Under the pieces are notes generated by a model. The model saw only the letters and a list, made by a program, of their open reading frames with translations, searched no databases and was not told the origin of the DNA. A stretch of 64,000 nucleotides of DNA from assembly GCF_913054185.1 (NCBI RefSeq), contig NZ_CAJXIV010000005.1, positions 7,253 through 71,252 on the forward strand, given 5' to 3'. Positions 1,211 to 15,970 of this stretch are shown piece after piece. Origin of the DNA: an uncultured Shimia sp. GTDB taxonomy: Bacteria > Pseudomonadota > Alphaproteobacteria > Rhodobacterales > Rhodobacteraceae. The position numbers and the translations under genes are program-made. The stretch's first letter is position 1, and each line of letters begins with the position of its first letter.

Positions 1211-1870
1211 ATGCTCGAGTTCGACAATGTGAGTAAGTCCTTCTGGACCGGCACGCAGCGCAAGGTCATCCTTGAGCGCGTCTCTTTCCGTGTCGAATTG
1301 GGCAACTCTCTGGGCATCTTGGCCCCCAACGGCACCGGCAAAACCACGTTGATCAATATGATGGCGGGGCTGGAAAAGCCCGACGAAGGCACAATCCGCC
1401 GCGACTGCCGCATTTCCTTCCCGCTTGGGTTCATGGGCGGCGTGGTGAACAAACACACCGCCGTGGAGAACAGCCGCTACATCGCTCGCCTCTATGGGCT
1501 TGATCCAGACTACGTCGAAGCCTTTTGTCGTTGGCTCTGCAACCTGGGCGAATACTTCGACCAGCCGCTTGGCACCTATTCCTCGGGCATGCGCTCGCGC
1601 TTCACCTTTGCGCTGATGCTCGCGTTGGATTTCGACATCTACTTGATTGACGAGGGCATGCCCTCATCCACCGACGTGGACTTTAACAAAAAAGCCGGTG
1701 AGGTGCTCCGCGAACGCCTGCGCACCACCACAATTGTGATTGTGTCACACCAGCCGCAAGTGCTGGAAAAATTTGCCCGTTCGGCCGCAGTGCTGCTGAA
1801 TGGCAAACTGTATATGTTCGACACCTTGGAAGAGGCCAAGCAGCTCTATGACTACCAAACCCAAGGCTAA
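1211..1870 (+). CDS. kpsT: Capsular polysaccharide export ABC transporter ATP-binding protein (KpsT-like)
   Basis: Walker A APNGTGKTT, signature YSSGMRSR, Walker B IYLIDEG, LDFDIYLIDE typical of KpsT; GGAG RBS upstream. Confidence 0.88.
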   Translation: MLEFDNVSKSFWTGTQRKVILERVSFRVELGNSLGILAPNGTGKTTLINMMAGLEKPDEGTIRRDCRISFPLGFMGGVVNKHTAVENSRYIARLYGLDPDYVEAFCRWLCNLGEYFDQPLGTYSSGMRSRFTFALMLALDFDIYLIDEGMPSSTDVDFNKKAGEVLRERLRTTTIVIVSHQPQVLEKFARSAAVLLNGKLYMFDTLEEAKQLYDYQTQG

Positions 1871-3482
1871 GAAATTCCGCGTCCGCCGCAGCGAGACCCC
1901 GCCCGCCCAGCCGGCAGCGGAGGGCACTGCGCAACCTGCGCCTCAACCCGCTCAACAGCCACGGCCGCGTGCAGTGTCCCTGCCCAATCCGGGACAGCCC
2001 ACAGCACAAGCCACGCCCGCCAATCCCGCGCAACCAACGCCGCAAGGCGCAGAGGCCGCCATTGACGCCATCAAACGTGAAGGGCTCACAGGCCGTCAGT
2101 TGCGTATGGCCCGCCGCATGGCACAGAAAAACAATCTGGCGCCAACCTCGGACTATGACGCCGTGCGTCTGTTGCGCGAAGCTGGCATCGACCCGTTCCA
2201 GCGCACCAACATGCTGGACCTGATGCCATCTGACAAAACCGCCACGCCTCCCGCCAAAGGCAGCAAGGTGCAGCTGCCACAGACCATGCCCATGGGCAAA
2301 GAAACCCTGCCTTCAACCGAGACCATGTCTCCGGCGGAAATGCGGGCGCTGGAAATTGGCGAAATTCAGAAAGACATCGCGCGCCGCCGCCGCCGTCGCC
2401 TGCTCCTTCTGCTCGCGCGCCTTTCAGCTTTTGTCTTCCTGCCCACCTTCTTTGCCGGCTGGTACTTCTACTCGATGGCCACGCCGATGTACTCCACCAA
2501 ATCGGCCTTCCTTGTGCAACAGGCCGACAGCGCCGGCGGCTCAGCCCTCGGCGGCCTGCTTCCGGCACAGCTCAACTCCAACCAGGATGCCATTGCCGTA
2601 CAGGATTACTTGACCAGCAAAGACGCGATGATCCGACTGGACAACGATGTGGGCTTCAAAGACCACTTCTCCAATACAGACATAGATCCGATTCAGCGGC
2701 TGGACGAAAATCCATCCAACGAAAAGGCCTATAAGGTCTACAAAAAGTTTGTCAAAATCGGCTACGACCCCACCGAAGGCTCGATCCGCATGGAGGTCAG
2801 CGCGGCAGACCCGGAGATCGCAACGCAGTTCTCAAAAGCCCTGATTTCCTATGCGGAACAACGGGTTGACGACCTGTCTCAACGCAAACGCAAAGACCAG
2901 CTGCGCGACGCCCGCAACAGTTTGGAAACCGCCAAAGAAGAACGTCGCAATGCCCAAATTGATCTGGTGCGCTTGCAAGAAAGCACCGTGCTTGACCCCG
3001 AAGGTGTAATTGCTTCGCTGCGTCAACAGATCACCAATCTGGAAATCCAGTTGCAAGAAAAGCAACTGCAACTGGCCGCCCTCGAAGACAACTCGCGCCC
3101 CAATAAGGCCCGCGTGGATGGTGTGCGGGGTGATGTGCGCCGGCTTCAGGCAGCCTTGGCCACCCAACGCGCCCGCATGACCGAGGCCACCGCCGGCGAG
3201 GAATCCCTTGCCGCCAAAACGTCGCAAATCCAGATCGCACAAGCCGACCTCGCGGCGGCTGATTTGCAAATGCAAACGTCTTTGCAAACCCTGAAGCAAA
3301 CCGAGTTGGAGGCCAACCGACAGGTGCGCTACCTGACCACCTCTGTTGACCCCGTGTCGGCACAAGACCCGTCTTACCCGCGCAGCTTTGAAAACACGAT
3401 CTTGGCCTTCCTGATCTTTTCGGGCATTTATCTGATGATCTCGCTGACCGCGTCCATCCTCAGAGAACAGGTGTCTTCGTAA
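1848..3482 (+). CDS. kpsE: Capsule export inner-membrane polysaccharide co-polymerase (KpsE/RkpR family)
   Basis: TM (AFVFLPTFFAGWYFY), ATPMYSTKSAFLV, DYLTSKDAM, long coiled coil, C-terminal PSYPRSFENTILAFLIF TM. Start taken at ATG 1848 rather than the track's 1800. Confidence 0.82.
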   Translation: MTTKPKAKKFRVRRSETPPAQPAAEGTAQPAPQPAQQPRPRAVSLPNPGQPTAQATPANPAQPTPQGAEAAIDAIKREGLTGRQLRMARRMAQKNNLAPTSDYDAVRLLREAGIDPFQRTNMLDLMPSDKTATPPAKGSKVQLPQTMPMGKETLPSTETMSPAEMRALEIGEIQKDIARRRRRRLLLLLARLSAFVFLPTFFAGWYFYSMATPMYSTKSAFLVQQADSAGGSALGGLLPAQLNSNQDAIAVQDYLTSKDAMIRLDNDVGFKDHFSNTDIDPIQRLDENPSNEKAYKVYKKFVKIGYDPTEGSIRMEVSAADPEIATQFSKALISYAEQRVDDLSQRKRKDQLRDARNSLETAKEERRNAQIDLVRLQESTVLDPEGVIASLRQQITNLEIQLQEKQLQLAALEDNSRPNKARVDGVRGDVRRLQAALATQRARMTEATAGEESLAAKTSQIQIAQADLAAADLQMQTSLQTLKQTELEANRQVRYLTTSVDPVSAQDPSYPRSFENTILAFLIFSGIYLMISLTASILREQVSS

Positions 3483-4315
3483 TGAAACATGTAAATGTTG
3501 GTGCTCTCACCATTGGCAATGACCTTCCACTGACGGTCATTGCTGGCCCATGCCAGTTGGAGAGCAAAGACCACGCCGAAATGATCGTCGGCACCATGAA
3601 AGAGGCCTGTGAAAAGGCCGGTGCGCAGTATGTCTTCAAGGCCAGCTACGACAAGGCCAACCGCACCTCACTGACCGGCATCCGGGGTCTTGGATTGGAC
3701 TCTGGCCTGTCCGTGCTCGACGGCATCCGCAAAGATTTCGACGTACCGGTGCTGACCGATGTGCACACCGAAGAGCAATGTGTTCTTGCCGCTGAGGCTG
3801 TCGACATCTTGCAAATCCCGGCCTTCCTCTGTCGCCAAACGGATATGCTGGTGGCTGCGGGCAAAACCGGCGCTGCGGTGAACGTCAAGAAGGGCCAGTT
3901 TCTGGCCCCTTGGGAGATGGGCAACATCGTCACCAAGATCGAAAGCACCGGCAACACCAACATCCTGTTGACCGAACGGGGCACCTCTTTTGGCTACAAC
4001 ACCCTTGTCGCCGATATGCGGTCCCTGCCGCAAATGGCCCAAACCGGCTACCCGGTTGTGATGGACGCAACCCACTCCGTGCAACAGCCCGGCGGTCAGG
4101 GTGGCAGCTCCGGCGGCCAGCGCGAGTTTGCCCCAGTCATGGCCCGCGCGGCAGTGTCTATTGGTACGGCAGCTGTATTCATTGAAACCCATCAAGATCC
4201 GGACAACGCGCCGTCAGATGGGCCCAATATGATCCACCTTGACCAAATGCCACAACTGATCGACACATTGATGCAGTTTGATGTGTTGGCCAAAGCCAAC
4301 CCAATTGCCATTTGA
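3482..4315 (+). CDS. kdsA: 3-deoxy-D-manno-octulosonate 8-phosphate synthase
   Basis: IAGPCQLES, FKASYDKANRTS, QIPAFLCRQTD, NVKKGQFLAP, ERGTSFGYN, DATHSVQQPG motifs; TAATG coupling to kpsE. Confidence 0.97.
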   Translation: MKHVNVGALTIGNDLPLTVIAGPCQLESKDHAEMIVGTMKEACEKAGAQYVFKASYDKANRTSLTGIRGLGLDSGLSVLDGIRKDFDVPVLTDVHTEEQCVLAAEAVDILQIPAFLCRQTDMLVAAGKTGAAVNVKKGQFLAPWEMGNIVTKIESTGNTNILLTERGTSFGYNTLVADMRSLPQMAQTGYPVVMDATHSVQQPGGQGGSSGGQREFAPVMARAAVSIGTAAVFIETHQDPDNAPSDGPNMIHLDQMPQLIDTLMQFDVLAKANPIAI

Positions 4316-4345
4316 CCGACCTATTTTGACGAGAAAGATTTTGCT

Positions 4346-5842
4346 ATGAAAAAACCATTGCCCGAAGTGCGCCCAAACACCTGGGAATTTCTGCGCGACC
4401 CGATGATCGCCCCTACTGGTTTTCGGGAATATGACGCCCGCTGGCAATTCCCCGAGGGCATCAACCTGCCTGGCATGACCGCCCTTGGCTTTGGCCTTGG
4501 CACCCAAATGCAGCGCCGCGGTATCGAACCGGTGATTGCCGTTGGTAACGATTACCGCGACTATTCTGTCTCCATCAAAATGGCGCTGGTTGTCGGCCTG
4601 ATGAAGGCCGGCATCCACGTCAAAGACATCGGCCCAGCTCTGTCTCCCATGGCCTATTTCTCCCAGTTCCACCTCGATGCGCCTGCCGTGGCCATGGTCA
4701 CCGCATCGCACAACCCCAATGGTTGGACCGGCGTAAAAATGGGCTTTGAAAAGCCGCTGACCCATGGTCCGGATGAGATGGCCGAACTGCGCGACATCGT
4801 GCTCAATGGCGACTTTGACGCCCATGACGGTGGCAAACACGAGATCATCGACGGTGTGCGCGAGGCCTATCTCGACGATCTGGTCGGCGATTTCAAAATG
4901 TCCCGCCCTCTAAAAGTTGTCTGCGCCACCGGCAACGGCACCGCCGCCGCTTTTGCCCCGGAACTCTTCAAACGTATGGGTGTGGAGGTGGTCGAAAGCC
5001 ACTGTGAGCTCGACTACACCTTCCCGCATTACAACCCCAACCCCGAAGCCATGGAAATGCTGCACGACATGTCTGACAGCGTGAAGGCCTCCGGCGCAGA
5101 CCTCGCGCTTGGCTTTGATGGCGACGGCGACCGCTGCGGCGTGGTGGATGACGAAGGTGAAGAAATCTTTGCTGACAAGGTCGGCGTGATCATGGCCAAA
5201 GACCTCGGCAAGCTCTACCCCAACGCCACCTTTGTTGCCGACGTGAAATCCACCGGACTTTACGCGGCGGACCCGGACCTTTTGGCCACCGGCGCCAAAA
5301 CCGACTACTGGAAAACCGGCCACAGCCATATGAAACGCCGCGTGAAAGAAATTGGCGCGCTGGCAGGCTTTGAAAAATCCGGCCACTACTTCCTCGCAGG
5401 CCCTATTGGGCGCGGCTATGACTGCGGCATGCGCGTTGCTGTGGAAATCTGCAAAATGCTGGACCGCAACCCGGACATGAAAATGTCGGACATGCGCAAA
5501 GCCCTGCCCAAAACCTGGTCTACCCCCACGATGTCGCCCTACGCGTCAGACACAGAGAAATACGACATTCTGGAACGTATCGTGGCCAAGTTGTCCGCGA
5601 TGCATGAGGCCGGTGACAAGATCGCCGGTCGCGCCATCAGCGAAGTTGTGACCGTAAATGGTGCTCGCGTGATCCTGGACAACGGCAGCTGGGGCCTCGT
5701 GCGCGCGTCCTCCAATACGCCAAACCTGGTGGTGGTGATCGAAAGCAACGAGAGCGACGCGGAGATGCGCCAAATCTTTGCCGAGATCGACGCGGTGATC
5801 CGCACCGAGCCCGGTGTGGGCGACTACGACCAGTCGATTTAA
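4346..5842 (+). CDS. Phosphomannomutase/phosphoglucomutase
   Basis: TASHNP phosphoserine loop, FDGDGDR metal loop, GFEKSGH sugar loop, RASSNTP. Confidence 0.93.
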   Translation: MKKPLPEVRPNTWEFLRDPMIAPTGFREYDARWQFPEGINLPGMTALGFGLGTQMQRRGIEPVIAVGNDYRDYSVSIKMALVVGLMKAGIHVKDIGPALSPMAYFSQFHLDAPAVAMVTASHNPNGWTGVKMGFEKPLTHGPDEMAELRDIVLNGDFDAHDGGKHEIIDGVREAYLDDLVGDFKMSRPLKVVCATGNGTAAAFAPELFKRMGVEVVESHCELDYTFPHYNPNPEAMEMLHDMSDSVKASGADLALGFDGDGDRCGVVDDEGEEIFADKVGVIMAKDLGKLYPNATFVADVKSTGLYAADPDLLATGAKTDYWKTGHSHMKRRVKEIGALAGFEKSGHYFLAGPIGRGYDCGMRVAVEICKMLDRNPDMKMSDMRKALPKTWSTPTMSPYASDTEKYDILERIVAKLSAMHEAGDKIAGRAISEVVTVNGARVILDNGSWGLVRASSNTPNLVVVIESNESDAEMRQIFAEIDAVIRTEPGVGDYDQSI

Positions 5843-6131: not shown

Positions 6132-6623
6132 ATGACGATCGACGTCTTGCTGCCGGAACTGCGCGCCTATGCGCTGTCGCTGTCCAAACACCGGCATGAT
6201 TCCGAAGACTTGGTTCAAGACGCGATCGAACGGGCACTGCGGTCGGACAAACGCCCCAAACCACTAGCTGATCTGCGCCCATGGATGTTTCGCATCATTC
6301 GCAACCTGCATGTGGATGAGACGCGAAAAAAACGGGTGCGCATGGAATATTCCAATACGCAAAGCCGTTTATCTATTGATCTAACGCAAAGCCACGACCA
6401 TGCCGAAGACATAACTGTACGGACGACATTTGCAACTTTACCGCCCGCCATGCGCGAGGTGTTGTTTCTCGTGGATGTTATGGGCATGAAATACGCCGAA
6501 GCCGCCAAAATCATGGACGTGCCACATGGCACAGTGATGAGCCGGATAAGCCGCGCCCGCCGCGCGTTGATCGAAGCAATTGAGGCCACGCCAGAGCAGG
6601 CCAACAAGGACACCAAAAGATGA
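6132..6623 (+). CDS. ECF-type RNA polymerase sigma factor
   Basis: Region 2 LRAYALSL...SEDLVQDAIERA...WMFRIIRN; region 4 REVLFLVDVMGMKYAEAAKIMDVPHGTVMSRISRAR. Start at ATG 6132; the track's upstream extension is unsupported. Confidence 0.92.
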   Translation: MTIDVLLPELRAYALSLSKHRHDSEDLVQDAIERALRSDKRPKPLADLRPWMFRIIRNLHVDETRKKRVRMEYSNTQSRLSIDLTQSHDHAEDITVRTTFATLPPAMREVLFLVDVMGMKYAEAAKIMDVPHGTVMSRISRARRALIEAIEATPEQANKDTKR

Positions 6624-7357
6624 CCGATCTAAGCGACAGCGATTGGGACCTGATCAACGCCTATGCAGATGGCGAACTGCCCGCCAGTGATCTGGCGGCC
6701 TTCGAAGCGCGCCTGGCCATTGAGCCTGCGCTACAAGAGGCGTTGCAGCAGGTGCAAAAAGTGTCCAGCGCATTGGCACAGATGCGCCCTGAGGTGGCCA
6801 TGCCTGCGCTCGAACCCGTGCAACCCGCAAACCGCAACTGGCGCCCGCTTGCGACTTGCGCCTCAATTGCGGCCATGACGATTGTCGCCGCAGGCCTGTT
6901 TTTCATGTCATCCAAAGTGCCAAAATCTGCCCTTGAGCTGCATCAGGCATTCTTGGACACAAGCTACACACTGCCGTCAGTGTCTGACGTTCAAGACGTT
7001 GACGTTCAGGCAAACCCGCTGGCGCCTGAGCTACTGATGGCCAATCTATATCTGGTGGAGCAGACAAGTTTGTCCGGGGACCGCAGCGCTGCGCATTACA
7101 AAGGGCGCAACAACTGCCGTTTGACACTGATGTCCGGGCCGGAGGTGAGCGCCAAGGACGTGCCGGAAGGCGTACGTTTTGCCCAGTGGCTCAACGACGA
7201 TCGTGGCTTTGTTGTGATGGCTTCAGGCATGGATCAGCGTCGGTTTAATGCCATTGCAGAGTTCCTGCGTCAGGCGACCCATGCGCCAACCCAACCGAAA
7301 ACCGTCTTGGCCATGAAACAGGCCACAGACGCCGCTGCCCCTTGTCAGCAAGTCTGA
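6620..7357 (+). CDS. Transmembrane anti-sigma factor
   Basis: ATGA overlap with sigma; N-terminal LINAYADGEL...FEARLA anti-sigma domain, one TM helix, periplasmic domain with CRLTL. Confidence 0.85.
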   Translation: MTDLSDSDWDLINAYADGELPASDLAAFEARLAIEPALQEALQQVQKVSSALAQMRPEVAMPALEPVQPANRNWRPLATCASIAAMTIVAAGLFFMSSKVPKSALELHQAFLDTSYTLPSVSDVQDVDVQANPLAPELLMANLYLVEQTSLSGDRSAAHYKGRNNCRLTLMSGPEVSAKDVPEGVRFAQWLNDDRGFVVMASGMDQRRFNAIAEFLRQATHAPTQPKTVLAMKQATDAAAPCQQV

Positions 7358-7432: not shown

Positions 7433-8152
7433 TTAGTTCTTTTTGCCCGGGAAGTTCGGGCGATCTACGCCATAGTTCACGGTGAGGTAGTCGAGAATGA
7501 TGCTGCGCTCTGGCTCTTCAAATTCGTCCATGCCCTGGTCTTCGACCATCCACTCGAACAACTCGATCCAGCCATCCCGGCTAAGCCCCTGCTGCGCGAC
7601 AATCATCTCGGAGTGGCAGGCAGAACAGGCATAAAAGGTCTCTTCCACGCCCGGTGCGTCAAAGAGAATGCCGTATTCGTAGTCTTCTTGCGCGTCAGCG
7701 GCCTCACCTGAGGCTGTCTCCGCCGCAGCGTCAAAGCTCAGCGGTGCGTCACTGTTCTGATTAAGAAACGCAATCAGATTGGCCCGGTCAGAGGCTTTTT
7801 TCATGCCCGCAAAAGTCATCTTGGTGCCTTTGACCACGGCTTTTGGTTTGGTCAGAAATGCATCCAATTGATCCACCGACCACGTACCACCCAACGCAAC
7901 AAGCGGCTTGGAGTATTTGTAGCCATCCACGGCGGCCACCGGCGCGCCCACAATACCATAAAGATTGGGGCCGGTCTTTTTCTTGCCGCCCTGATCAACC
8001 GTGTGACAGGCCTTACATTTCTTGAAGGCTTTTTCGCCTTTGGCAATGTCGGCTTGCGGCAACAGTTCGGCGACGGTTTCGGCAGTGGTCATGGCTGGCA
8101 AAGCAAGCGTCAGGCAAAAGCCCAGACTTGCCCCGATGGCGGGGATACGCAT
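7433..8152 (-). CDS. Periplasmic diheme cytochrome c (cytochrome c2-like domain fused to SorB-like domain)
   Basis: Signal peptide; CKACH with [10 protein letters not shown] and GTKMTFAG (class I c2); second CSACHS with W...WM and [10 protein letters not shown] resembling SorB-type cytochromes. Confidence 0.82.
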
Positions 8153-8224: not shown

Positions 8225-9517
8225 TTAGCTGACGCGCAGACCAACCCGGTGCATGGTGTTGTTGAGGTAGCCTTTTGGATTCCAGTCAATGGCAAAAGGT
8301 TGCATCTCGCCATTGCTGTCTGTCGCACGCGCCCAGACTTCGTAGTAGCCTGCCTGCGGGAAGGACACGTTGGAACGCCAATTCTGCCAAGCGCCGGAGT
8401 TCACCGGTGCATCCAGCTCTGCGGTCTGCCAGGTGGCACCAAAGTCTGAGGAAACTTCCAGCTTCTCAATTGTACGGTCACCGGACCACGCGTGCCCGCG
8501 CACTTCAGTTTCCATACCCACTTCTGCGCCATTGGCCGGGAAGGTCACCAAAGATTTCACCGGCATCCGCTCGATGATCACAAAATCTTCGGTTTCCACC
8601 TTTTCACCTGGGGCCACAGGACGGTTTGGTACGCGGTAGGCTTTGCCGGTCATTTTTGGACCGTCATGCACCACATCACGCAACTCGATGCGTGTCAGCC
8701 ATTTTTGAGCTGTGGAGGCAGGCCAACCTGGCACCACGAGCCGCAGAGGTGCGCCGTTCAGCGGGTGCAGCGGCGCACCGTTCATTTCAAACGCAATCAG
8801 GATCTCGTCTGTCATCGCTTTGGCAATTGGCATGCCGCGCGAAATTGGCAGTTTGGCAGGATCACCAGACAGATGCGCATCCGCGCCATAGTGGGCAGTG
8901 TACACCACGTTAGATTGTACGCCTGCCGCTTCCAGCACGTCTTTCAAACGCACACCGGTCCATTCAGAACAGGCCACCGCACCATAGGTCCACTGGTTGC
9001 CTTTGGCTGGCGGATTAAAGAAGCCACGGCCGTTGCCGCCACATTCCAGCGTCAGCGCACTGGTGACCACTTCGAATTTTTCTTTCAGATCGGCGATGCT
9101 CAAGGTGAGGGGCGTGTCAACAAAGCCATCGATGGTCAATGTCCAGCTTGCCGCATCAACATCCTCAGGTGGAATGCCGTTGTTGCGCACAAAGTGGCGC
9201 GACGTGGGGGTGATTGCATCGTCCAGAAGCTCTGGTGGTGTTTCCGCGTTTACCGGCCGGTCGTTGAGCAATGTCAGGCCGTCTTTGCCCACCAGCACGT
9301 CCTCAGACGCCATGGCCGCTGGCACAAAGCCAATTGGCATATTGCGGTGGAACGGGATCGACGTGCCCACCATGGCCGCCATAGTGGCCAGGCCAGTGCG
9401 CTTGAGGAAGCCGCGGCGGTCCGGGTTTGGCACTCGGCCGTAAAACTCCTTGTCCGCCTTCTCCGGATTCTCGGCGAAAAAGCTGTTTACGTCCTTAGTC
9501 TTATCGTCGTCGGCCAT
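8225..9517 (-). CDS. Tat-exported sulfite-oxidase-family molybdoenzyme (SorA/SorT-like sulfite dehydrogenase)
   Basis: Tat motif DRRGFLK; HFVRNNG, LECGGNGR (Mo-ligand Cys), WTGVRLKDVL, HPLNGAPLRLVVPGW, KWLTRI, WNPKGY. GGAGG RBS before ATG 9517. Confidence 0.9.
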   Translation of the reverse strand: MADDDKTKDVNSFFAENPEKADKEFYGRVPNPDRRGFLKRTGLATMAAMVGTSIPFHRNMPIGFVPAAMASEDVLVGKDGLTLLNDRPVNAETPPELLDDAITPTSRHFVRNNGIPPEDVDAASWTLTIDGFVDTPLTLSIADLKEKFEVVTSALTLECGGNGRGFFNPPAKGNQWTYGAVACSEWTGVRLKDVLEAAGVQSNVVYTAHYGADAHLSGDPAKLPISRGMPIAKAMTDEILIAFEMNGAPLHPLNGAPLRLVVPGWPASTAQKWLTRIELRDVVHDGPKMTGKAYRVPNRPVAPGEKVETEDFVIIERMPVKSLVTFPANGAEVGMETEVRGHAWSGDRTIEKLEVSSDFGATWQTAELDAPVNSGAWQNWRSNVSFPQAGYYEVWARATDSNGEMQPFAIDWNPKGYLNNTMHRVGLRVS

Positions 9518-9580
9518 ATTATCCTCCCATGGCGTAGTGCTGTTGGGCGCCCCACTCTGAATTGGTGGTTGCAAGGGACT

Positions 9581-9747: not shown

Positions 9748-9785
9748 AAAAATGAAAAAGCCCCCCGGACGCAAATCCGGAAGGC
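9748..9785 (-). terminator. Intrinsic terminator after chemoreceptor gene
   Basis: Minus strand GCCTTCCGGA-TTTGCG-TCCGGGGGGC then TTTTTCATTTTT. Confidence 0.72.
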
Positions 9786-9809
9786 TGATCCCTAAAACGG
9801 GCTCTTTAA

Positions 9810-12020
9810 TCACGCAACCAAGCTGCCTCTGGCCCCGTCATCAGCGTCCTGATCCGGCGCGTGCATGACTTTGAAACCAGACACGGTGGTGGACAGAATC
9901 TTGGATTCCGATTGCGCCCCTTGCATGGCAGAGTTGACTTCAAAAAACGCCGCTGCATTTTCCTGTGTTGATTTGTCCAAACGACCCACCGCCACGTTGA
10001 TTTCGTTAATTCCAACAGAGGTGTCTTTGGTGGCTGCCGCAATGTGGCGAATTTGGTCCGTGGCGCCGTTTACGCCAACGACAATCTCATCAAAGGCTTT
10101 GCCTGTGTCGCGGACCAAAGACACGCCTCGCTCCACAGTCGATCCGGTGGTTTTGATGAGCTCGGAGATTTGTCTGGCAGACTCTGACGATTTTTGCGCC
10201 AAGGCTCGGACTTCAGAGGCCACAACAGCAAACCCTTGCCCAGCTTCTCCGGCACGGGCCGCTTCGACCCCCGCGTTGAGCGCCAGCAGGTTGGTTTGAA
10301 ACGCAATGTCCTCGATAACGGCCAAGGTGCCATCAATTGAATCTGTCGCCGCTTCGATTTCCGCCATTGCCTCAACCGCCAAGCTCATGACCTGCTGCCC
10401 TTGGGCCGCGCGATTGGTGATGTCGTCAACGGAGGTGTTTGCATCAGTTGCCGACGCCGCCATGGATCCAACCGTAGAGGACATCTGCTCCAACGCTGCC
10501 GCGGTTTCTTCCAAGGCCGCGGCGTTTTGTTCCGAGTTTGCCGCTACAGAATCCGTGGTGCGAGACACTTCTGACGACACATTTTCCACAACCGCCGCGG
10601 ATTTTGACACCAGATTGATTTTTTCAGACAGGCTGTCGGTTGCGGTGTTCATCGAGGTGGCGATATCGCCAAATATCCCCTGAAACCCGTCCGGCATCCG
10701 ATAGGTCAAATCCTGCTGCTCTATATGGCTCAGCCCGGTGCGCACCGCTTCCAGACCTTCATTTGCAGAGCTGCCAATGCTGTTCACCTTCACACAGATC
10801 TCTTTGAAGATGCCCTCTTTGTCCTCAGTGCCAAGCTGCCCGGTGAAATCACCACGGGCACAAGCTTCGACCACTTCGGCGATCTCTTCGGCTGCGACCT
10901 TTTCTGAGGCGCGTTGGGCCAACAACAGCTCAATGGAGGCATGTAATTCGGCAATTTCCTTGGCGGAGCTGCGGTATTTCAGCGGTTCTGCCTCATCCCC
11001 GCGGGCAGCGGAGGCCAATGCCTGTGTGCCTTCACGCAAAGGGCGCAGCTGTCGACGGCACCAGATCATCATGGCGCCAAGGAAAAGCGCGATCATGCCA
11101 AGAAGCGCACCCATAGCCCGGAAAATCACCGCATTTTTCTCGGCTTGTTGCGCCGAGAAATCCGACAGCAAAATCAGATCAAACGCAGTGCCGTTTTGGT
11201 CAACCGCAATCCGATTGCGCGCTGCAACAAAGTGATTGTCCCCGACCGCAATCACATCAAAGGTAAGCTCATTGCCAGCAAGCGCGGTCATCGTCGCAGT
11301 CGTGATCGCTTTTGGAGTCGGCACAGCAGACTCTGCGGCTGTGGAATCTTTGTCAGCTGTCGTTTCGGCCTCAGGCACCGCGGGGGCTTCATAGCCTTGC
11401 AGCTCCCATTGTGAGTCAGGCGTAATTTCCGCAAGCAAAACACTCATTTGCATGGCTTCCGCAATCACCGGAAGGCTGGATTGCGCATCCAAGGCTAGCA
11501 TACCGTAGCCCACCACATCACGGCCGGAAAACAGCGGGAACGCATAAACCGCGCCATACCGTGTTTCATCAATCTGTGTGATGCCAAACGCGCGCTGACG
11601 ACTTTCCTTTACGCCGCGAACAATGTCCGGTGCCGTGGCCTGAGAGAGGTTTTCATTGTGGGTGCTGAAGGCGGCAACAACGGACGTTTCTTTGTCAAAA
11701 ATGATCAGATCAGAGATCTCGCCCGACGCGGAGGCCCGGTTAAACGTCGAGGACAGGTCCTCTTGAACGACCGCAAAATCGCCGTCCTTAAGGGCCTTCA
11801 TACTGTCGCGGGCTCGCGACACAGTGCGCCCATGATTGGTCAGTGTCTTCTCGCTGCGTTGCAACACTTGCAGCGCGGCGACACTGGCGTTTTCAGCGTT
11901 TAGGGACAGCAAAGTTGTCTCAACCCGTTTCAGGATTGCCCCGCCGCCAATAACAAAAGCTGCGGTCATAGCCATTGCAAAAATACAAAGCCCCACGACG
12001 ATACGGTTTGAAAGTGACAT
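9810..12020 (-). CDS. Methyl-accepting chemotaxis protein with large periplasmic (Cache-like) sensor domain
   Basis: Two TM helices, HAMP-like segments, hallmark IAFQTNLLALNAGVEAARAGEAGQGFAVVASEVRALAQ. Start at ATG 12020. Confidence 0.93.
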   Translation of the reverse strand: MSLSNRIVVGLCIFAMAMTAAFVIGGGAILKRVETTLLSLNAENASVAALQVLQRSEKTLTNHGRTVSRARDSMKALKDGDFAVVQEDLSSTFNRASASGEISDLIIFDKETSVVAAFSTHNENLSQATAPDIVRGVKESRQRAFGITQIDETRYGAVYAFPLFSGRDVVGYGMLALDAQSSLPVIAEAMQMSVLLAEITPDSQWELQGYEAPAVPEAETTADKDSTAAESAVPTPKAITTATMTALAGNELTFDVIAVGDNHFVAARNRIAVDQNGTAFDLILLSDFSAQQAEKNAVIFRAMGALLGMIALFLGAMMIWCRRQLRPLREGTQALASAARGDEAEPLKYRSSAKEIAELHASIELLLAQRASEKVAAEEIAEVVEACARGDFTGQLGTEDKEGIFKEICVKVNSIGSSANEGLEAVRTGLSHIEQQDLTYRMPDGFQGIFGDIATSMNTATDSLSEKINLVSKSAAVVENVSSEVSRTTDSVAANSEQNAAALEETAAALEQMSSTVGSMAASATDANTSVDDITNRAAQGQQVMSLAVEAMAEIEAATDSIDGTLAVIEDIAFQTNLLALNAGVEAARAGEAGQGFAVVASEVRALAQKSSESARQISELIKTTGSTVERGVSLVRDTGKAFDEIVVGVNGATDQIRHIAAATKDTSVGINEINVAVGRLDKSTQENAAAFFEVNSAMQGAQSESKILSTTVSGFKVMHAPDQDADDGARGSLVA

Positions 12021-12059
12021 ATGTGCTGTCCCCAATAGTTTTCTTAAATCGTTGGTCGA

Positions 12060-12473
12060 TTATTCAATCGGGAAACCCGCATTTTCCCACGCAGGGTAGC
12101 CATCGCGGAAGTAATATACCTTGCCAAAGCCCCAGGAGACGGCCATCTCAGCCGCTTTTGAAGACCGCATGCAGGAGTGGCCGTTGCAATAGAAAACAAC
12201 CGGCACATCAGCGCCGACAACCTCGGCCAGAGCGTCTTGTGTCAGGGCGGATTTCACATCCAGATGCACAGCACCCGGAATGCGGCCCGCTTCATAATCA
12301 GACGGCTTGCGCACGTCGATAAAGGCCACGCCTTCATCAAAAAGTTGAACCGCCTCTGCCGGGGATATCGTGGTTGCGCCGGATACGGTTTCAGGGGATT
12401 GCGCCGCCAGTGCAGCAAATGGCAACAGCACCAGCGCTGCGACTGCCGCGAGTTTGCTCAGAATATGTGACAT
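12060..12473 (-). CDS. Secreted single-domain rhodanese-like protein
   Basis: Signal peptide ending AALAA; FIDVRKPSDYEAGRIPGAVHL, VVFYCNGHSCMRS, YYFRDGYPAW; GGAG RBS before ATG 12473. Confidence 0.88.
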   Translation of the reverse strand: MSHILSKLAAVAALVLLPFAALAAQSPETVSGATTISPAEAVQLFDEGVAFIDVRKPSDYEAGRIPGAVHLDVKSALTQDALAEVVGADVPVVFYCNGHSCMRSSKAAEMAVSWGFGKVYYFRDGYPAWENAGFPIE

Positions 12474-14914: not shown

Positions 14915-15970
14915 TCAGGCGTTTTTGCCGCCGCAGGTTGGGCAATCCGCGCGGGACTTGAGGCCAATTTTGCGGGTCTCCCCCCACAGTGCATCATAGA
15001 TCATCATCTCGCCGCGCAAGGCCGCACCAGCCCCGGTGATCACCTTGATTGCTTCCGCTGCCATCATGGTTCCAACCACGCCGGGCAGCGGCCCAACCAC
15101 CCCGGCCTCTGAGCAGCTTGGCGCCATGCCCGGCGCAGGCGCCTCGGAAAAAATGCATTGATAACAAGGAGTTCCGTTGGCCGGATCAAACACGCTCAAC
15201 TGCCCTTCCCATTGAGAAAGAGCGCCCGAAATCAACGGCTTGCCGAGCGCGACACAAATCTCATTGACCAGGTAGCGCGTGACAAAGTTATCCGTGCCAT
15301 CCAACACCAAATCATAGTCGCCAATGATCTCCGCCGCATCCTCTTCGGTCAAACGACGCGGATACGGCACCACTGTCACAAACGGGTTCTGCGCCGTCAT
15401 AGCCTCCGCCGCCGACAGTACCTTTGGCGTGCCAATTGCCTCATCTTTGTGGATCACCTGGCGCTGCAGATTGGAGTTGTCGACCACGTCGTCATCAACC
15501 ACGCCAACCGTACCCACGCCGGACGCTGCCAAATACAGCAAAACCGGCGATCCAAGACCGCCAGCGCCAATCACCAACACCTTGGATTCTTTCAGTTTTT
15601 TCTGCCCCAATCCACCCAATTCACGCAACACAATATGGCGTGCATAGCGGTTCAATTCGGTGTCGGAAAACAGCTCCTGCGCCGCGTTTTCCTGCGCCAC
15701 ATCTTGCGCTTTATTGTCAGCCTTTTGGCGCAGCCTTTGCAGTATCGAAGAATAGACAACAATCACGGCCACAACCCCGCCAATCAATAGCCACATCGCC
15801 AAGCTCCCGCCAGTCGCAATCACCAATTGATGCTGCGGCGGGAAAACGATCTGCACCCCCAAAACAGCCACATACAGCAGACCAATCATGGTCCAGCGCG
15901 CAGACTTTGGCGCGCCGATCACCATGCCAATCCCCCATAGAGCGGCAACCATCACAAGCACCAACAGCAT
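14915..15970 (-). CDS. moeB: MoeB/ThiF/HesA-family adenylyltransferase with N-terminal membrane segment
   Basis: RYARHIVL, VIGAGGLGSP, DDDVVDNSNLQRQV, DGTDNF, CYQC, CSEAGVVGPLPG, CPTC. Confidence 0.88.
   Translation of the reverse strand: MLLVLVMVAALWGIGMVIGAPKSARWTMIGLLYVAVLGVQIVFPPQHQLVIATGGSLAMWLLIGGVVAVIVVYSSILQRLRQKADNKAQDVAQENAAQELFSDTELNRYARHIVLRELGGLGQKKLKESKVLVIGAGGLGSPVLLYLAASGVGTVGVVDDDVVDNSNLQRQVIHKDEAIGTPKVLSAAEAMTAQNPFVTVVPYPRRLTEEDAAEIIGDYDLVLDGTDNFVTRYLVNEICVALGKPLISGALSQWEGQLSVFDPANGTPCYQCIFSEAPAPGMAPSCSEAGVVGPLPGVVGTMMAAEAIKVITGAGAALRGEMMIYDALWGETRKIGLKSRADCPTCGGKNA

Follow-up and report, generated by a model that had tools for sequence, protein, structure and literature searches.

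Introduction

No fold class of sensor domain is used more often than dCache in combination with periplasmic partner proteins encoded next to it, examples being LuxP/LuxQ of Vibrio harveyi, BasB/BasT, NspS/MbaA and HptA/HptS (PMC8050422). In these pairs, and likewise in CosB/CosT, an exported partner is encoded beside a dCache-type transducer, and it is the partner that carries the signal (PMC8050422). The same gene order and tight linkage are found at a locus of an uncultured Shimia sp. (GCF_913054185.1), where a gene for a secreted rhodanese is directly followed by a gene for a methyl-accepting chemotaxis protein (MCP) with a dCache sensor domain. This locus was analysed within a 64,000-nucleotide (nt) stretch of contig NZ_CAJXIV010000005.1, referred to here as the window; coordinates are positions in the window unless another locus (L numbers) or contig is named.

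The putative partner sets this locus apart. LuxP/LuxQ-type partners are solute-binding proteins of the periplasmic-binding-protein fold that take non-covalent ligands, whereas the partner here has a 112-residue rhodanese domain with reactive-looking cysteines; both Pfam and Foldseek identify it as a rhodanese, not as a solute-binding protein. A 2021 review of partner-protein signalling deals with solute-binding proteins only and nowhere mentions rhodanese (PMC8050422). In full-text literature searches, no description was found of a rhodanese paired with a chemoreceptor, MCP or Cache domain, nor of a sulfurtransferase with dCache or of thiosulfate or polysulfide/persulfide with a chemoreceptor. 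Similarly, no molecular receptor for sulfide, thiosulfate or polysulfide taxis was found in the searchable literature.

Indirect sensing of an inorganic or small ligand via a loaded periplasmic protein is also known from phosphate chemotaxis in Pseudomonas aeruginosa (CtpL-PstS) and from Tar-MBP and Tsr-LsrB of Escherichia coli (PMC8050422). There, the partners are transporter proteins shared with uptake and encoded apart from the receptor, and the receptor domains are four-helix bundles or HBM rather than dCache.

Small single-domain rhodaneses are known as well, none of them with a receptor. Sud of Wolinella succinogenes (1qxn) is a periplasmic protein that carries sulfur on a cysteine and passes it by contact to the membrane polysulfide reductase. 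It resembles the rhodanese described here with a TM-score of 0.63 to the structural model and a marginal profile similarity (E-value 7.6e-4), but its loop is standard, it has a single cysteine, and the protein it serves is the polysulfide reductase of respiration rather than a signal transducer. The E. coli thiosulfate sulfurtransferases PspE, which is periplasmic, and GlpE are of the same small single-domain type, with a six-residue loop, a single cysteine and no receptor linkage. TsoB (described as a rhodanese/DsbD fusion-like selenoprotein), PQQ_CXXCW and LYCAU share with the present rhodanese a second redox-active residue in or beside the active-site loop; their spacing is CXXC or CxU versus CX4C here, and none has been described with a chemoreceptor.

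Results

Layout of the locus

The following features make up the gene pair, all of them on the minus strand:

12060..12473, minus: secreted single-domain rhodanese, 137 residues (Pfam Rhodanese; coordinates include the stop codon)
12402..12473, minus: predicted signal peptide, residues 1-24, ...LPFAALA/AQSPE (hydropathy scan; low predicted local distance difference test (pLDDT) scores at residues 1-25)
12162..12191, minus: active-site loop Y95-C96-N-G-H-S-C101-M-R103-S104 (sequence and family alignment)
12021..12059, minus: 39-nt spacer from the rhodanese stop to the MCP start (GGGGA 9 nt 5' of the ATG)
9810..12020, minus: MCP, 736 residues (MCPsignal, HAMP_2, two transmembrane segments; coordinates include the stop codon)
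11130..11933, minus: periplasmic dCache (dCache_3-like) sensor domain, residues 30-297 (AlphaFold2 fold, Foldseek, family Pfam matches)
11805..11816, minus: family-specific motif R69-A-R71-D72 (sensor alignments)
11316..11387, minus: Ala/Pro/Thr/Glu low-complexity linker between the two sensor modules (alignment; coil and pLDDT dip in the AlphaFold2 model)
10629..11057, minus: HAMP/HAMP_2 region, residues 322-464 (Pfam)
9972..10427, minus: MCP signalling domain, residues 532-683, with the canonical hairpin tip EDIAFQTNLLALNAGVEAARAGEAGQGFAVVA (Pfam and sequence)
9749..9786, minus: intrinsic-terminator-like hairpin, 12-bp stem with 7 G-C pairs, and T-run (hairpin at 9786..9759, 24 nt past the MCP stop)

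The order on the minus strand is rhodanese, MCP, hairpin with T-run, SorA-like molybdoenzyme and cytochrome c. The original prediction, made from the letters of this DNA, had described a signal-peptide rhodanese with the two-cysteine loop YCNGHSC ending 39 nt before an MCP with a Cache-like periplasmic domain, a terminator behind the pair, a sulfite oxidase operon directly downstream and a window without che genes, and all of this was borne out. Pfam, the hydrophobic N-terminus and the loop at 12191..12162 agree with the first point, and the gap is exact (stop codon TAA at 12062..12060, ATG at 12020). The periplasmic domain was recognised as dCache-type from its modelled double PAS-like fold, its dCache matches in the PDB and the dCache_3 matches of its family. 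Past the MCP, the sulfite oxidase-family operon consists of a molybdoenzyme (9520..8225) and a cytochrome c (8152..7433). The hairpin is the strongest terminator-like site of the region; such sites reach in total the number expected from shuffled sequence, so that position and strength are what back it. Using E. coli CheA, CheW, CheY, CheB, CheR and CheZ as tblastn queries, nothing was found in the window besides the MCP itself. The window is close to Shimia sagamensis DSM 29734, with a 99% identical rhodanese in a DNA background of ~90-93% identity.

Conservation of the gene pair

A scan of one genome per species using motifs of the rhodanese family yielded 228 relatives, and the best 80 loci were analysed with 10-kb flanks. 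An MCP gene lies directly downstream on the same strand in 71/80 loci, and in 71 of the 74 that have at least 2.5 kb of downstream sequence. The spacer has a median of 48 nt and is at most 120 nt long in 63 of the 71. Of the nine exceptions, six lie on contigs with less than 1.6 kb of sequence past the rhodanese; in two of these, the start of the sensor domain is still visible. Clustering of all flanking open reading frames (ORFs) revealed no third conserved gene, no other flanking family being present in more than 8 of the 80 loci; this count was made per family, single-linkage grouping by shared flanking families being uninformative (common families merged 42 loci).

Judging from record titles, the carriers comprise ~30 Alphaproteobacteria, ~46 Gammaproteobacteria, one member of the Burkholderiaceae and three unclassified Proteobacteria/Pseudomonadota. 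The alphaproteobacterial carriers include Rhodobacteraceae, Rhodospirillales, Kiloniella, Devosiaceae and Roseibium, the gammaproteobacterial ones Sedimenticola, Chromatiales, Thiotrichales, Thiohalophilus, Ectothiorhodospiraceae, Ca. Thiodiazotropha and Vibrio kyushuensis. Cultivable carriers are found among them, namely Shimia sagamensis DSM 29734, Tritonibacter multivorans CECT 7557, Kiloniella litopenaei P1-1 and Vibrio kyushuensis. With the pairing recurring in 71/80 unrelated genome contexts, a chance arrangement peculiar to Shimia was considered and rejected.

The linkage also holds with the sensor as anchor. A hidden Markov model of the sensor domain detected 65 genes within the 80 loci (±10 kb), all of them downstream of the rhodanese: 63 directly and two as tandem copies in L082. 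A metagenome scan with the motif L[ATI]RDR[DEN]T[RLV][NK]A, derived from a gammaproteobacterial subset of sensors, gave 23 sensor loci, four of which share contigs with genome loci already counted (L083=L021, L087=L048, L089=L051, L105=L030). The rhodanese gene is directly upstream in 21 of the 22 that have upstream sequence. Word-indexed protein searches with the sensor, either as a single sequence or as a 41-sequence profile, returned two near-identical matches only. When 1.84 billion representative proteins were scanned exhaustively with HMMER, the sensor domain of the window gave 45 relatives only; in all six of these that were looked up (26-33% identity to the window copy), a rhodanese gene was located 10-126 nt upstream. 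P0155, described below, is one of the six.

MCPs account for 34 of the 35 full-length sensor relatives that were aligned and scanned with Pfam. The sole non-MCP, P0155 (L111, Logan SRR26541458 contig, 2024-4987), has a histidine-kinase output and the architecture dCache_3-HAMP-Hpt-HATPase_c. It carries the sensor motif of the family, here as LARDK (RDK), and is preceded by a rhodanese with the loop CNGVDCVRS. As the linkage survives this exchange of output for a kinase, it tracks the periplasmic sensor domain and not the chemotaxis output; no other observation argues more strongly for joint action of the two periplasmic parts.

The neighbourhood survey for rhodanese-MCP pairs, named in the original prediction as a check, was thus positive with either gene as anchor. 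The proposal made there that rhodanese and MCP form a functional unit gains support from the two-way linkage in Alpha-, Gamma- and a Betaproteobacterium, from the short spacers and from the kinase-output case. At the level of gene order, the pairing is real, ancient and reciprocal and is kept in nearly every proteobacterium with either gene. Comparison of these loci shows that a predicted exported CX4C rhodanese is inherited in obligate combination with a dCache receptor domain devoid of cysteine.

Several loci depart from the usual arrangement. In L055 (9923-14775), a PhnD-like binding protein and a 1068-residue PAS-rich sensor protein come after the rhodanese, and in L022 (10004-11115) a 226-residue protein with two CxxCH motifs does so. 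The MCPs following the rhodanese in L032 and L074 have a shorter, unrelated periplasmic domain of ~140 residues. In L082 (2280-6040), two tandem MCP paralogues follow, both with the family sensor domain.

The rhodanese

The exported protein scores 64.9 bits against Pfam Rhodanese (PF00581; cut-off 22.2) and belongs to a tight family of ~137-residue proteins, with 689 matches (E-value at most 0.001) in a protein search. Alphaproteobacterial and gammaproteobacterial members are 50-60% identical. Its AlphaFold2 model (pLDDT 90.5) is a standard single rhodanese domain of alpha/beta fold, and the Foldseek neighbours of this model are 3tp9, 6mxv, 2hhg, YgaP, GlpE, TSTD1 and Sud (root-mean-square deviation ~2 Å, E-values down to 6e-9).

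An alignment of 25 family sequences has 31 invariant columns, and the hydrophobic N-terminus is common to all members. In the loop, C96, N97, G98, C101, R103 and S104 are invariant. C96 directly follows the strand VVFY and aligns with the catalytic cysteine of solved rhodaneses; a cysteine was retained at this position in 6/6 further contigs examined. Profile alignment of the family loop CNGxxC[ML]RS with CGGGFRS of solved rhodaneses places a two-residue insertion in the former, containing C101. The loop is therefore not the six-residue CxxGxR/T-type loop of sulfurtransferases, being two residues longer and having a second invariant cysteine. One variant was seen in L109 (2058-2462), where the loop reads CNGKKCGLS and lacks the otherwise invariant Arg; the partner MCP retains an RDRK motif.

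In a comparison with NCBIfam, the family was covered by no curated model. The best scores were obtained with TsoB (NF045694; 64.2 bits), PQQ_CXXCW (TIGR03865; 50.5 bits) and rhodanese_LYCAU (NF041203; 44 bits), far under the respective cut-offs of 805, 128 and 115. Matches to GlpE (40.4 bits) and PspE (18.9 bits) were weak and likewise far under the family cut-offs.

The MCP and its sensor domain

MCPsignal matches with 145.6 bits (cut-off 34.6) and the hairpin tip is conserved, which identifies the second gene product as an MCP. By hydropathy, it has the class I topology of a first transmembrane segment (~7-29), a periplasmic domain, a second transmembrane segment (298-320) and HAMP. HAMP_2 scores 28.1 bits (cut-off 24.3) and the classical HAMP model 18.5, under its cut-off of 25.

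The sensor domain of the window copy reaches 18.7 bits with dCache_3 (PF14827), under the curated cut-off of 25.7; across the family, dCache_3 matches 39/41 members at an E-value of at most 1 (best 2.2e-17) and dCache_1 (PF02743) matches 21/41. An AlphaFold2 model built with 35 homologues (pLDDT 92.7, predicted TM-score 0.86) has a long N-terminal helix and two PAS-like alpha/beta modules. Its top Foldseek matches are the ligand-binding domains of TlpQ, Mlp24, Tlp3, PctA, DctB and KinD (E-values ~1e-7, TM-scores 0.3-0.5), and all 50 matches listed are dCache-type or related double-PAS sensor domains. Searching PDB sequences with the sensor-family profile gave spurious matches to designed repeat proteins and weak dCache matches only.

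Family-specific features of the sensor are a [LI][TAS]-R-[DNS]-[RK]-[DE] motif, a TFNR motif and a DxT motif before the second transmembrane segment. All 65 partner sensors have the invariant R69, and 60 of them have R or K at position 71. The FPL...G hairpin, in contrast, is a general Cache signature, located in the region that aligns weakly with Tlp3, McpH and McpU. In receptors of the Rhodobacteraceae type, the window copy among them, there is an additional low-complexity linker and the HAMP region is longer; the linker is absent from the 620-residue gammaproteobacterial type. The sensor domain has no cysteine in 64/65 members, the window copy included. A relay of persulfide onto the receptor was accordingly ruled out.

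Compared with S. sagamensis DSM 29734 (L003), the sensor segment at 11100-11850 (minus strand) is a divergence hot spot, with a DNA identity of 58-79% between flanks of ~90-93%. Protein identity is 76% in this segment and 98-100% in the rhodanese, HAMP and signalling domains. Synonymous (dS ~1.4 versus 0.56) and nonsynonymous divergence (dN 0.158 versus 0.015) are both elevated, pointing to relaxed constraint and/or recombinational replacement of the allele.

Transcription and decay in relatives

Related RNA sequence was present in one marine metatranscriptome only, at low depth. Its contig X12-11 (1168 nt, ~94% identical) includes the complete rhodanese gene, continues through the spacer and stops after the first 15 nt of the MCP gene; smaller pieces fall inside the MCP gene. 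The contig is compatible with co-transcription, thin as this evidence is.

In some close relatives, decay of the MCP gene was seen, among other places at L002 990-2976 and at positions corresponding to 10548-10594 and 10917-11097 of the window (runs X1/X2). In the Shimia metagenome-assembled genome GCA_049116215.1 (L001 10001-10872), a deletion has joined a rhodanese that lacks its last residues to sensor residues ~43-135, and what is left of the MCP beyond it is a 61-residue C-terminal remnant. In a population from a seawater metagenome, the MCP gene has deletions of 45 nt and 179 nt; the latter shifts the frame, so that the gene is split into ORFs of 330 and 339 residues.

The neighbouring operon and the rest of the window

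Beyond the terminator-like hairpin, the following features were annotated, the molybdoenzyme lying outside the conserved module:

8225..9520, minus: TAT (twin-arginine translocation)-exported sulfite-oxidase-family molybdoenzyme, SorA-like (Oxidored_molyb 175.9 bits, Mo-co_dimer 66.8 bits)
7433..8152, minus: two-haem c-type cytochrome with CKACH and CSACH motifs (sequence and family matches)
6132..6623, plus: extracytoplasmic function (ECF) sigma factor, convergent with the SorA operon
6620..7357, plus: anti-sigma factor, convergent with the SorA operon

With its Mo-binding and dimerisation domains and TAT signal, the molybdoenzyme is by sequence a member of the sulfite-oxidase family; the NCBIfam cut-offs of all three subfamilies are missed (SorA 256.9 versus 600, SorT 205.2 versus 570, SoxC 196.1 versus 420). 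In the 239-residue cytochrome, a cytochrome c550-like domain is fused to one that is weakly SorB-like; the score with SorB is 25.8 bits (cut-off 93).

SorA adjoins the pair only in the Shimia loci L001-L005, and the cytochrome and sigma/anti-sigma genes likewise accompany it in Shimia only. Among differently flanked Shimia genomes (L001 versus the window), molybdoenzyme, cytochrome and ECF sigma/anti-sigma genes move as a block with the pair. The SorA neighbourhood is, as far as gene order tells, Shimia-specific; it fits the sulfur theme and is not part of the conserved unit. The suggestion that the sulfite dehydrogenase belongs to the sensing system was therefore not upheld.

Elsewhere in the window, a ThiF/MoeB-family protein of 351 residues (14915-15970, minus strand) has its ThiF domain from residue 109, preceded by a hydrophobic N-terminal extension that looks membrane-spanning. 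A 560-residue ORF at 1800-3482 (plus strand), between ABC ATPase-like and KDO8P/DAHP-synthase-family genes, matched no Pfam family at an E-value of at most 1e-5. ARAGORN found no tRNA or tmRNA in the 64 kb, and no Rfam family reached its gathering score.

Discussion

Proposed mechanism

Our preferred reading of the pair is a dCache receptor that depends on a partner protein, the partner being of a new kind. Specifically, the two genes would encode a self-contained periplasmic sensing module with the secreted rhodanese as primary sensor and the MCP as transducer; we put the probability of this reading at roughly one half. The rhodanese would react covalently at Cys96/Cys101 with reactive sulfur species. 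In one possible chemistry, sulfur from thiosulfate or polysulfide would be transferred onto C96 to form a persulfide, which C101 could resolve to a tri- or polysulfide bridge. In a periplasmic protein with two cysteines, a disulfide is the expected resting state, owing to the Dsb systems. In a second chemistry, sulfide or sulfite would attack a C96-C101 disulfide, giving a persulfide or S-sulfonate. C101 may thus permit chemistries beyond those of the original prediction, namely a disulfide or trisulfide switch and sulfitolysis. With its loop changed, the rhodanese would dock differently on the dCache domain, or a complex already formed would be altered, as in LuxP/LuxQ. The signal would then travel via the second transmembrane segment and HAMP to the signalling hairpin and from there to a Che pathway whose genes lie elsewhere, so that the cell could orient itself in gradients of sulfur or redox state. 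Motility, a fla1 flagellar cluster and sox genes are known from a related Shimia strain (PMC4818494). The abundance of marine sulfur oxidisers among the carriers, seen from record titles that name Sedimenticola, Chromatiales, Thiotrichales, Thiohalophilus and Ca. Thiodiazotropha, is counted in favour of this reading. Both the persulfide-loaded partner and the sulfur ligand are put forward as hypotheses. At slightly less than even odds, we would tentatively extend the reading to a widespread class of chemoreceptor systems, now and then with a kinase in place of the chemoreceptor, in marine sulfur-cycling proteobacteria, in which a secreted CX4C rhodanese-fold protein, covalently sulfur-loaded or redox-switched, signals to a dedicated dCache receptor.

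A number of observations weigh against a rhodanese-dependent receptor. Three loci with full flanks, L022, L026 and L055, have no MCP after the rhodanese, and the sensor locus L092 has no rhodanese. In some Shimia relatives, the MCP gene is deleted or frameshifted. The RNA support consists of a single short contig from a ~94% identical relative, for which carry-over of DNA is possible. The enlarged two-cysteine loop differs from that of characterised sulfurtransferases, so that, from its sequence, sulfurtransferase activity cannot be assumed, and the enrichment of sulfur oxidisers rests on record titles only. Finally, R69 and the RxRD motif would suit a pocket for a small anion just as well, in which case the receptor itself might bind a small molecule.

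Alternative explanations

The last point leads to enzyme-assisted direct sensing, in which the dCache domain would bind a small anion via RxRD/Asn while the rhodanese interconverts the ligand without docking, for instance thiosulfate to sulfite; thiosulfate, sulfite, thiocyanate and tetrathionate are candidate anions. The conservation of R69 and of a basic residue at position 71 would be explained in this way, the PDB neighbours of the sensor model are ligand-bound, and in the majority of dCache domains characterised so far, the membrane-distal module is where small ligands bind (PMC8050422). The rhodanese, for its part, retains a catalytic-type cysteine and the loop Arg/Ser. A freely diffusing enzyme, however, would not need strict one-to-one, two-way linkage with one sensor family, and the loop is unlike that of a characterised thiosulfate sulfurtransferase. 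We also know of no chemoreceptor that depends on an operon-encoded ligand-converting enzyme. Direct sensing of this kind is considered unlikely, although it deserves real weight.

Thiol-disulfide redox sensing is considered quite improbable. Here, a C96/C101 switch set by oxidants, oxygen-linked Dsb activity or reductants would drive a redox- or energy-type taxis and not one specific to sulfur. Two invariant cysteines five residues apart in an exported protein, a receptor without a cysteine of its own, and the presumed redox function of the closest NCBIfam relatives TsoB, PQQ_CXXCW and LYCAU, which are two-Cys or Cys/Sec proteins, all accord with such a switch. The invariance of N97, G98, R103 and S104, in contrast, suggests a bound sulfur or oxyanion ligand and not a disulfide only, and the enrichment of sulfur oxidisers among the carriers speaks against a purely redox input.

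A non-sulfur oxyanion such as selenite, arsenate or phosphate might instead be sensed in the enlarged loop, as in rhodanese-fold proteins of the Cdc25/Acr2 type. The loop is indeed longer than in sulfurtransferases, the nearest NCBIfam families include selenoproteins, and the close structural neighbour 2hhg is annotated as a possible phosphatase. The rhodanese, however, lacks a CX5R motif, the flanking-family survey revealed no arsenic or selenium genes nearby, and the ecology of the carriers points to sulfur; this explanation is considered very improbable.

That the rhodanese is an accessory of the sulfite dehydrogenase operon with the MCP merely in between is hardly credible: the order rhodanese-MCP-SorA-cytochrome c-antisigma-sigma is maintained in Shimia L001-L005 and L001 retains rhodanese and SorA with the MCP mostly deleted, but that deletion also took the rhodanese C-terminus, a strong terminator-like hairpin separates MCP and SorA, and SorA is absent from 75/75 non-Shimia loci, nearly all of which have the MCP, so that the neighbourhood survey contradicts membership of the rhodanese in the SorA operon.

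Significance

By moving towards or away from sulfide, thiosulfate and polysulfide, bacteria influence how sulfur is cycled in symbioses and where oxic and anoxic zones meet. The conserved pair suggests an undescribed way to sense reactive sulfur compounds through a helper protein, and it offers a concrete, genetically compact candidate sulfur receptor in cultivable strains. If the rhodanese-dependent receptor is real, it would be the first case of a co-receptor other than a solute-binding protein and the first defined receptor for reduced inorganic sulfur taxis. Indirect receptor activation would then extend from solute-binding proteins to an enzyme-fold partner with covalent chemistry, and a role would be assigned to a 689-member rhodanese subfamily that has no dedicated family model.

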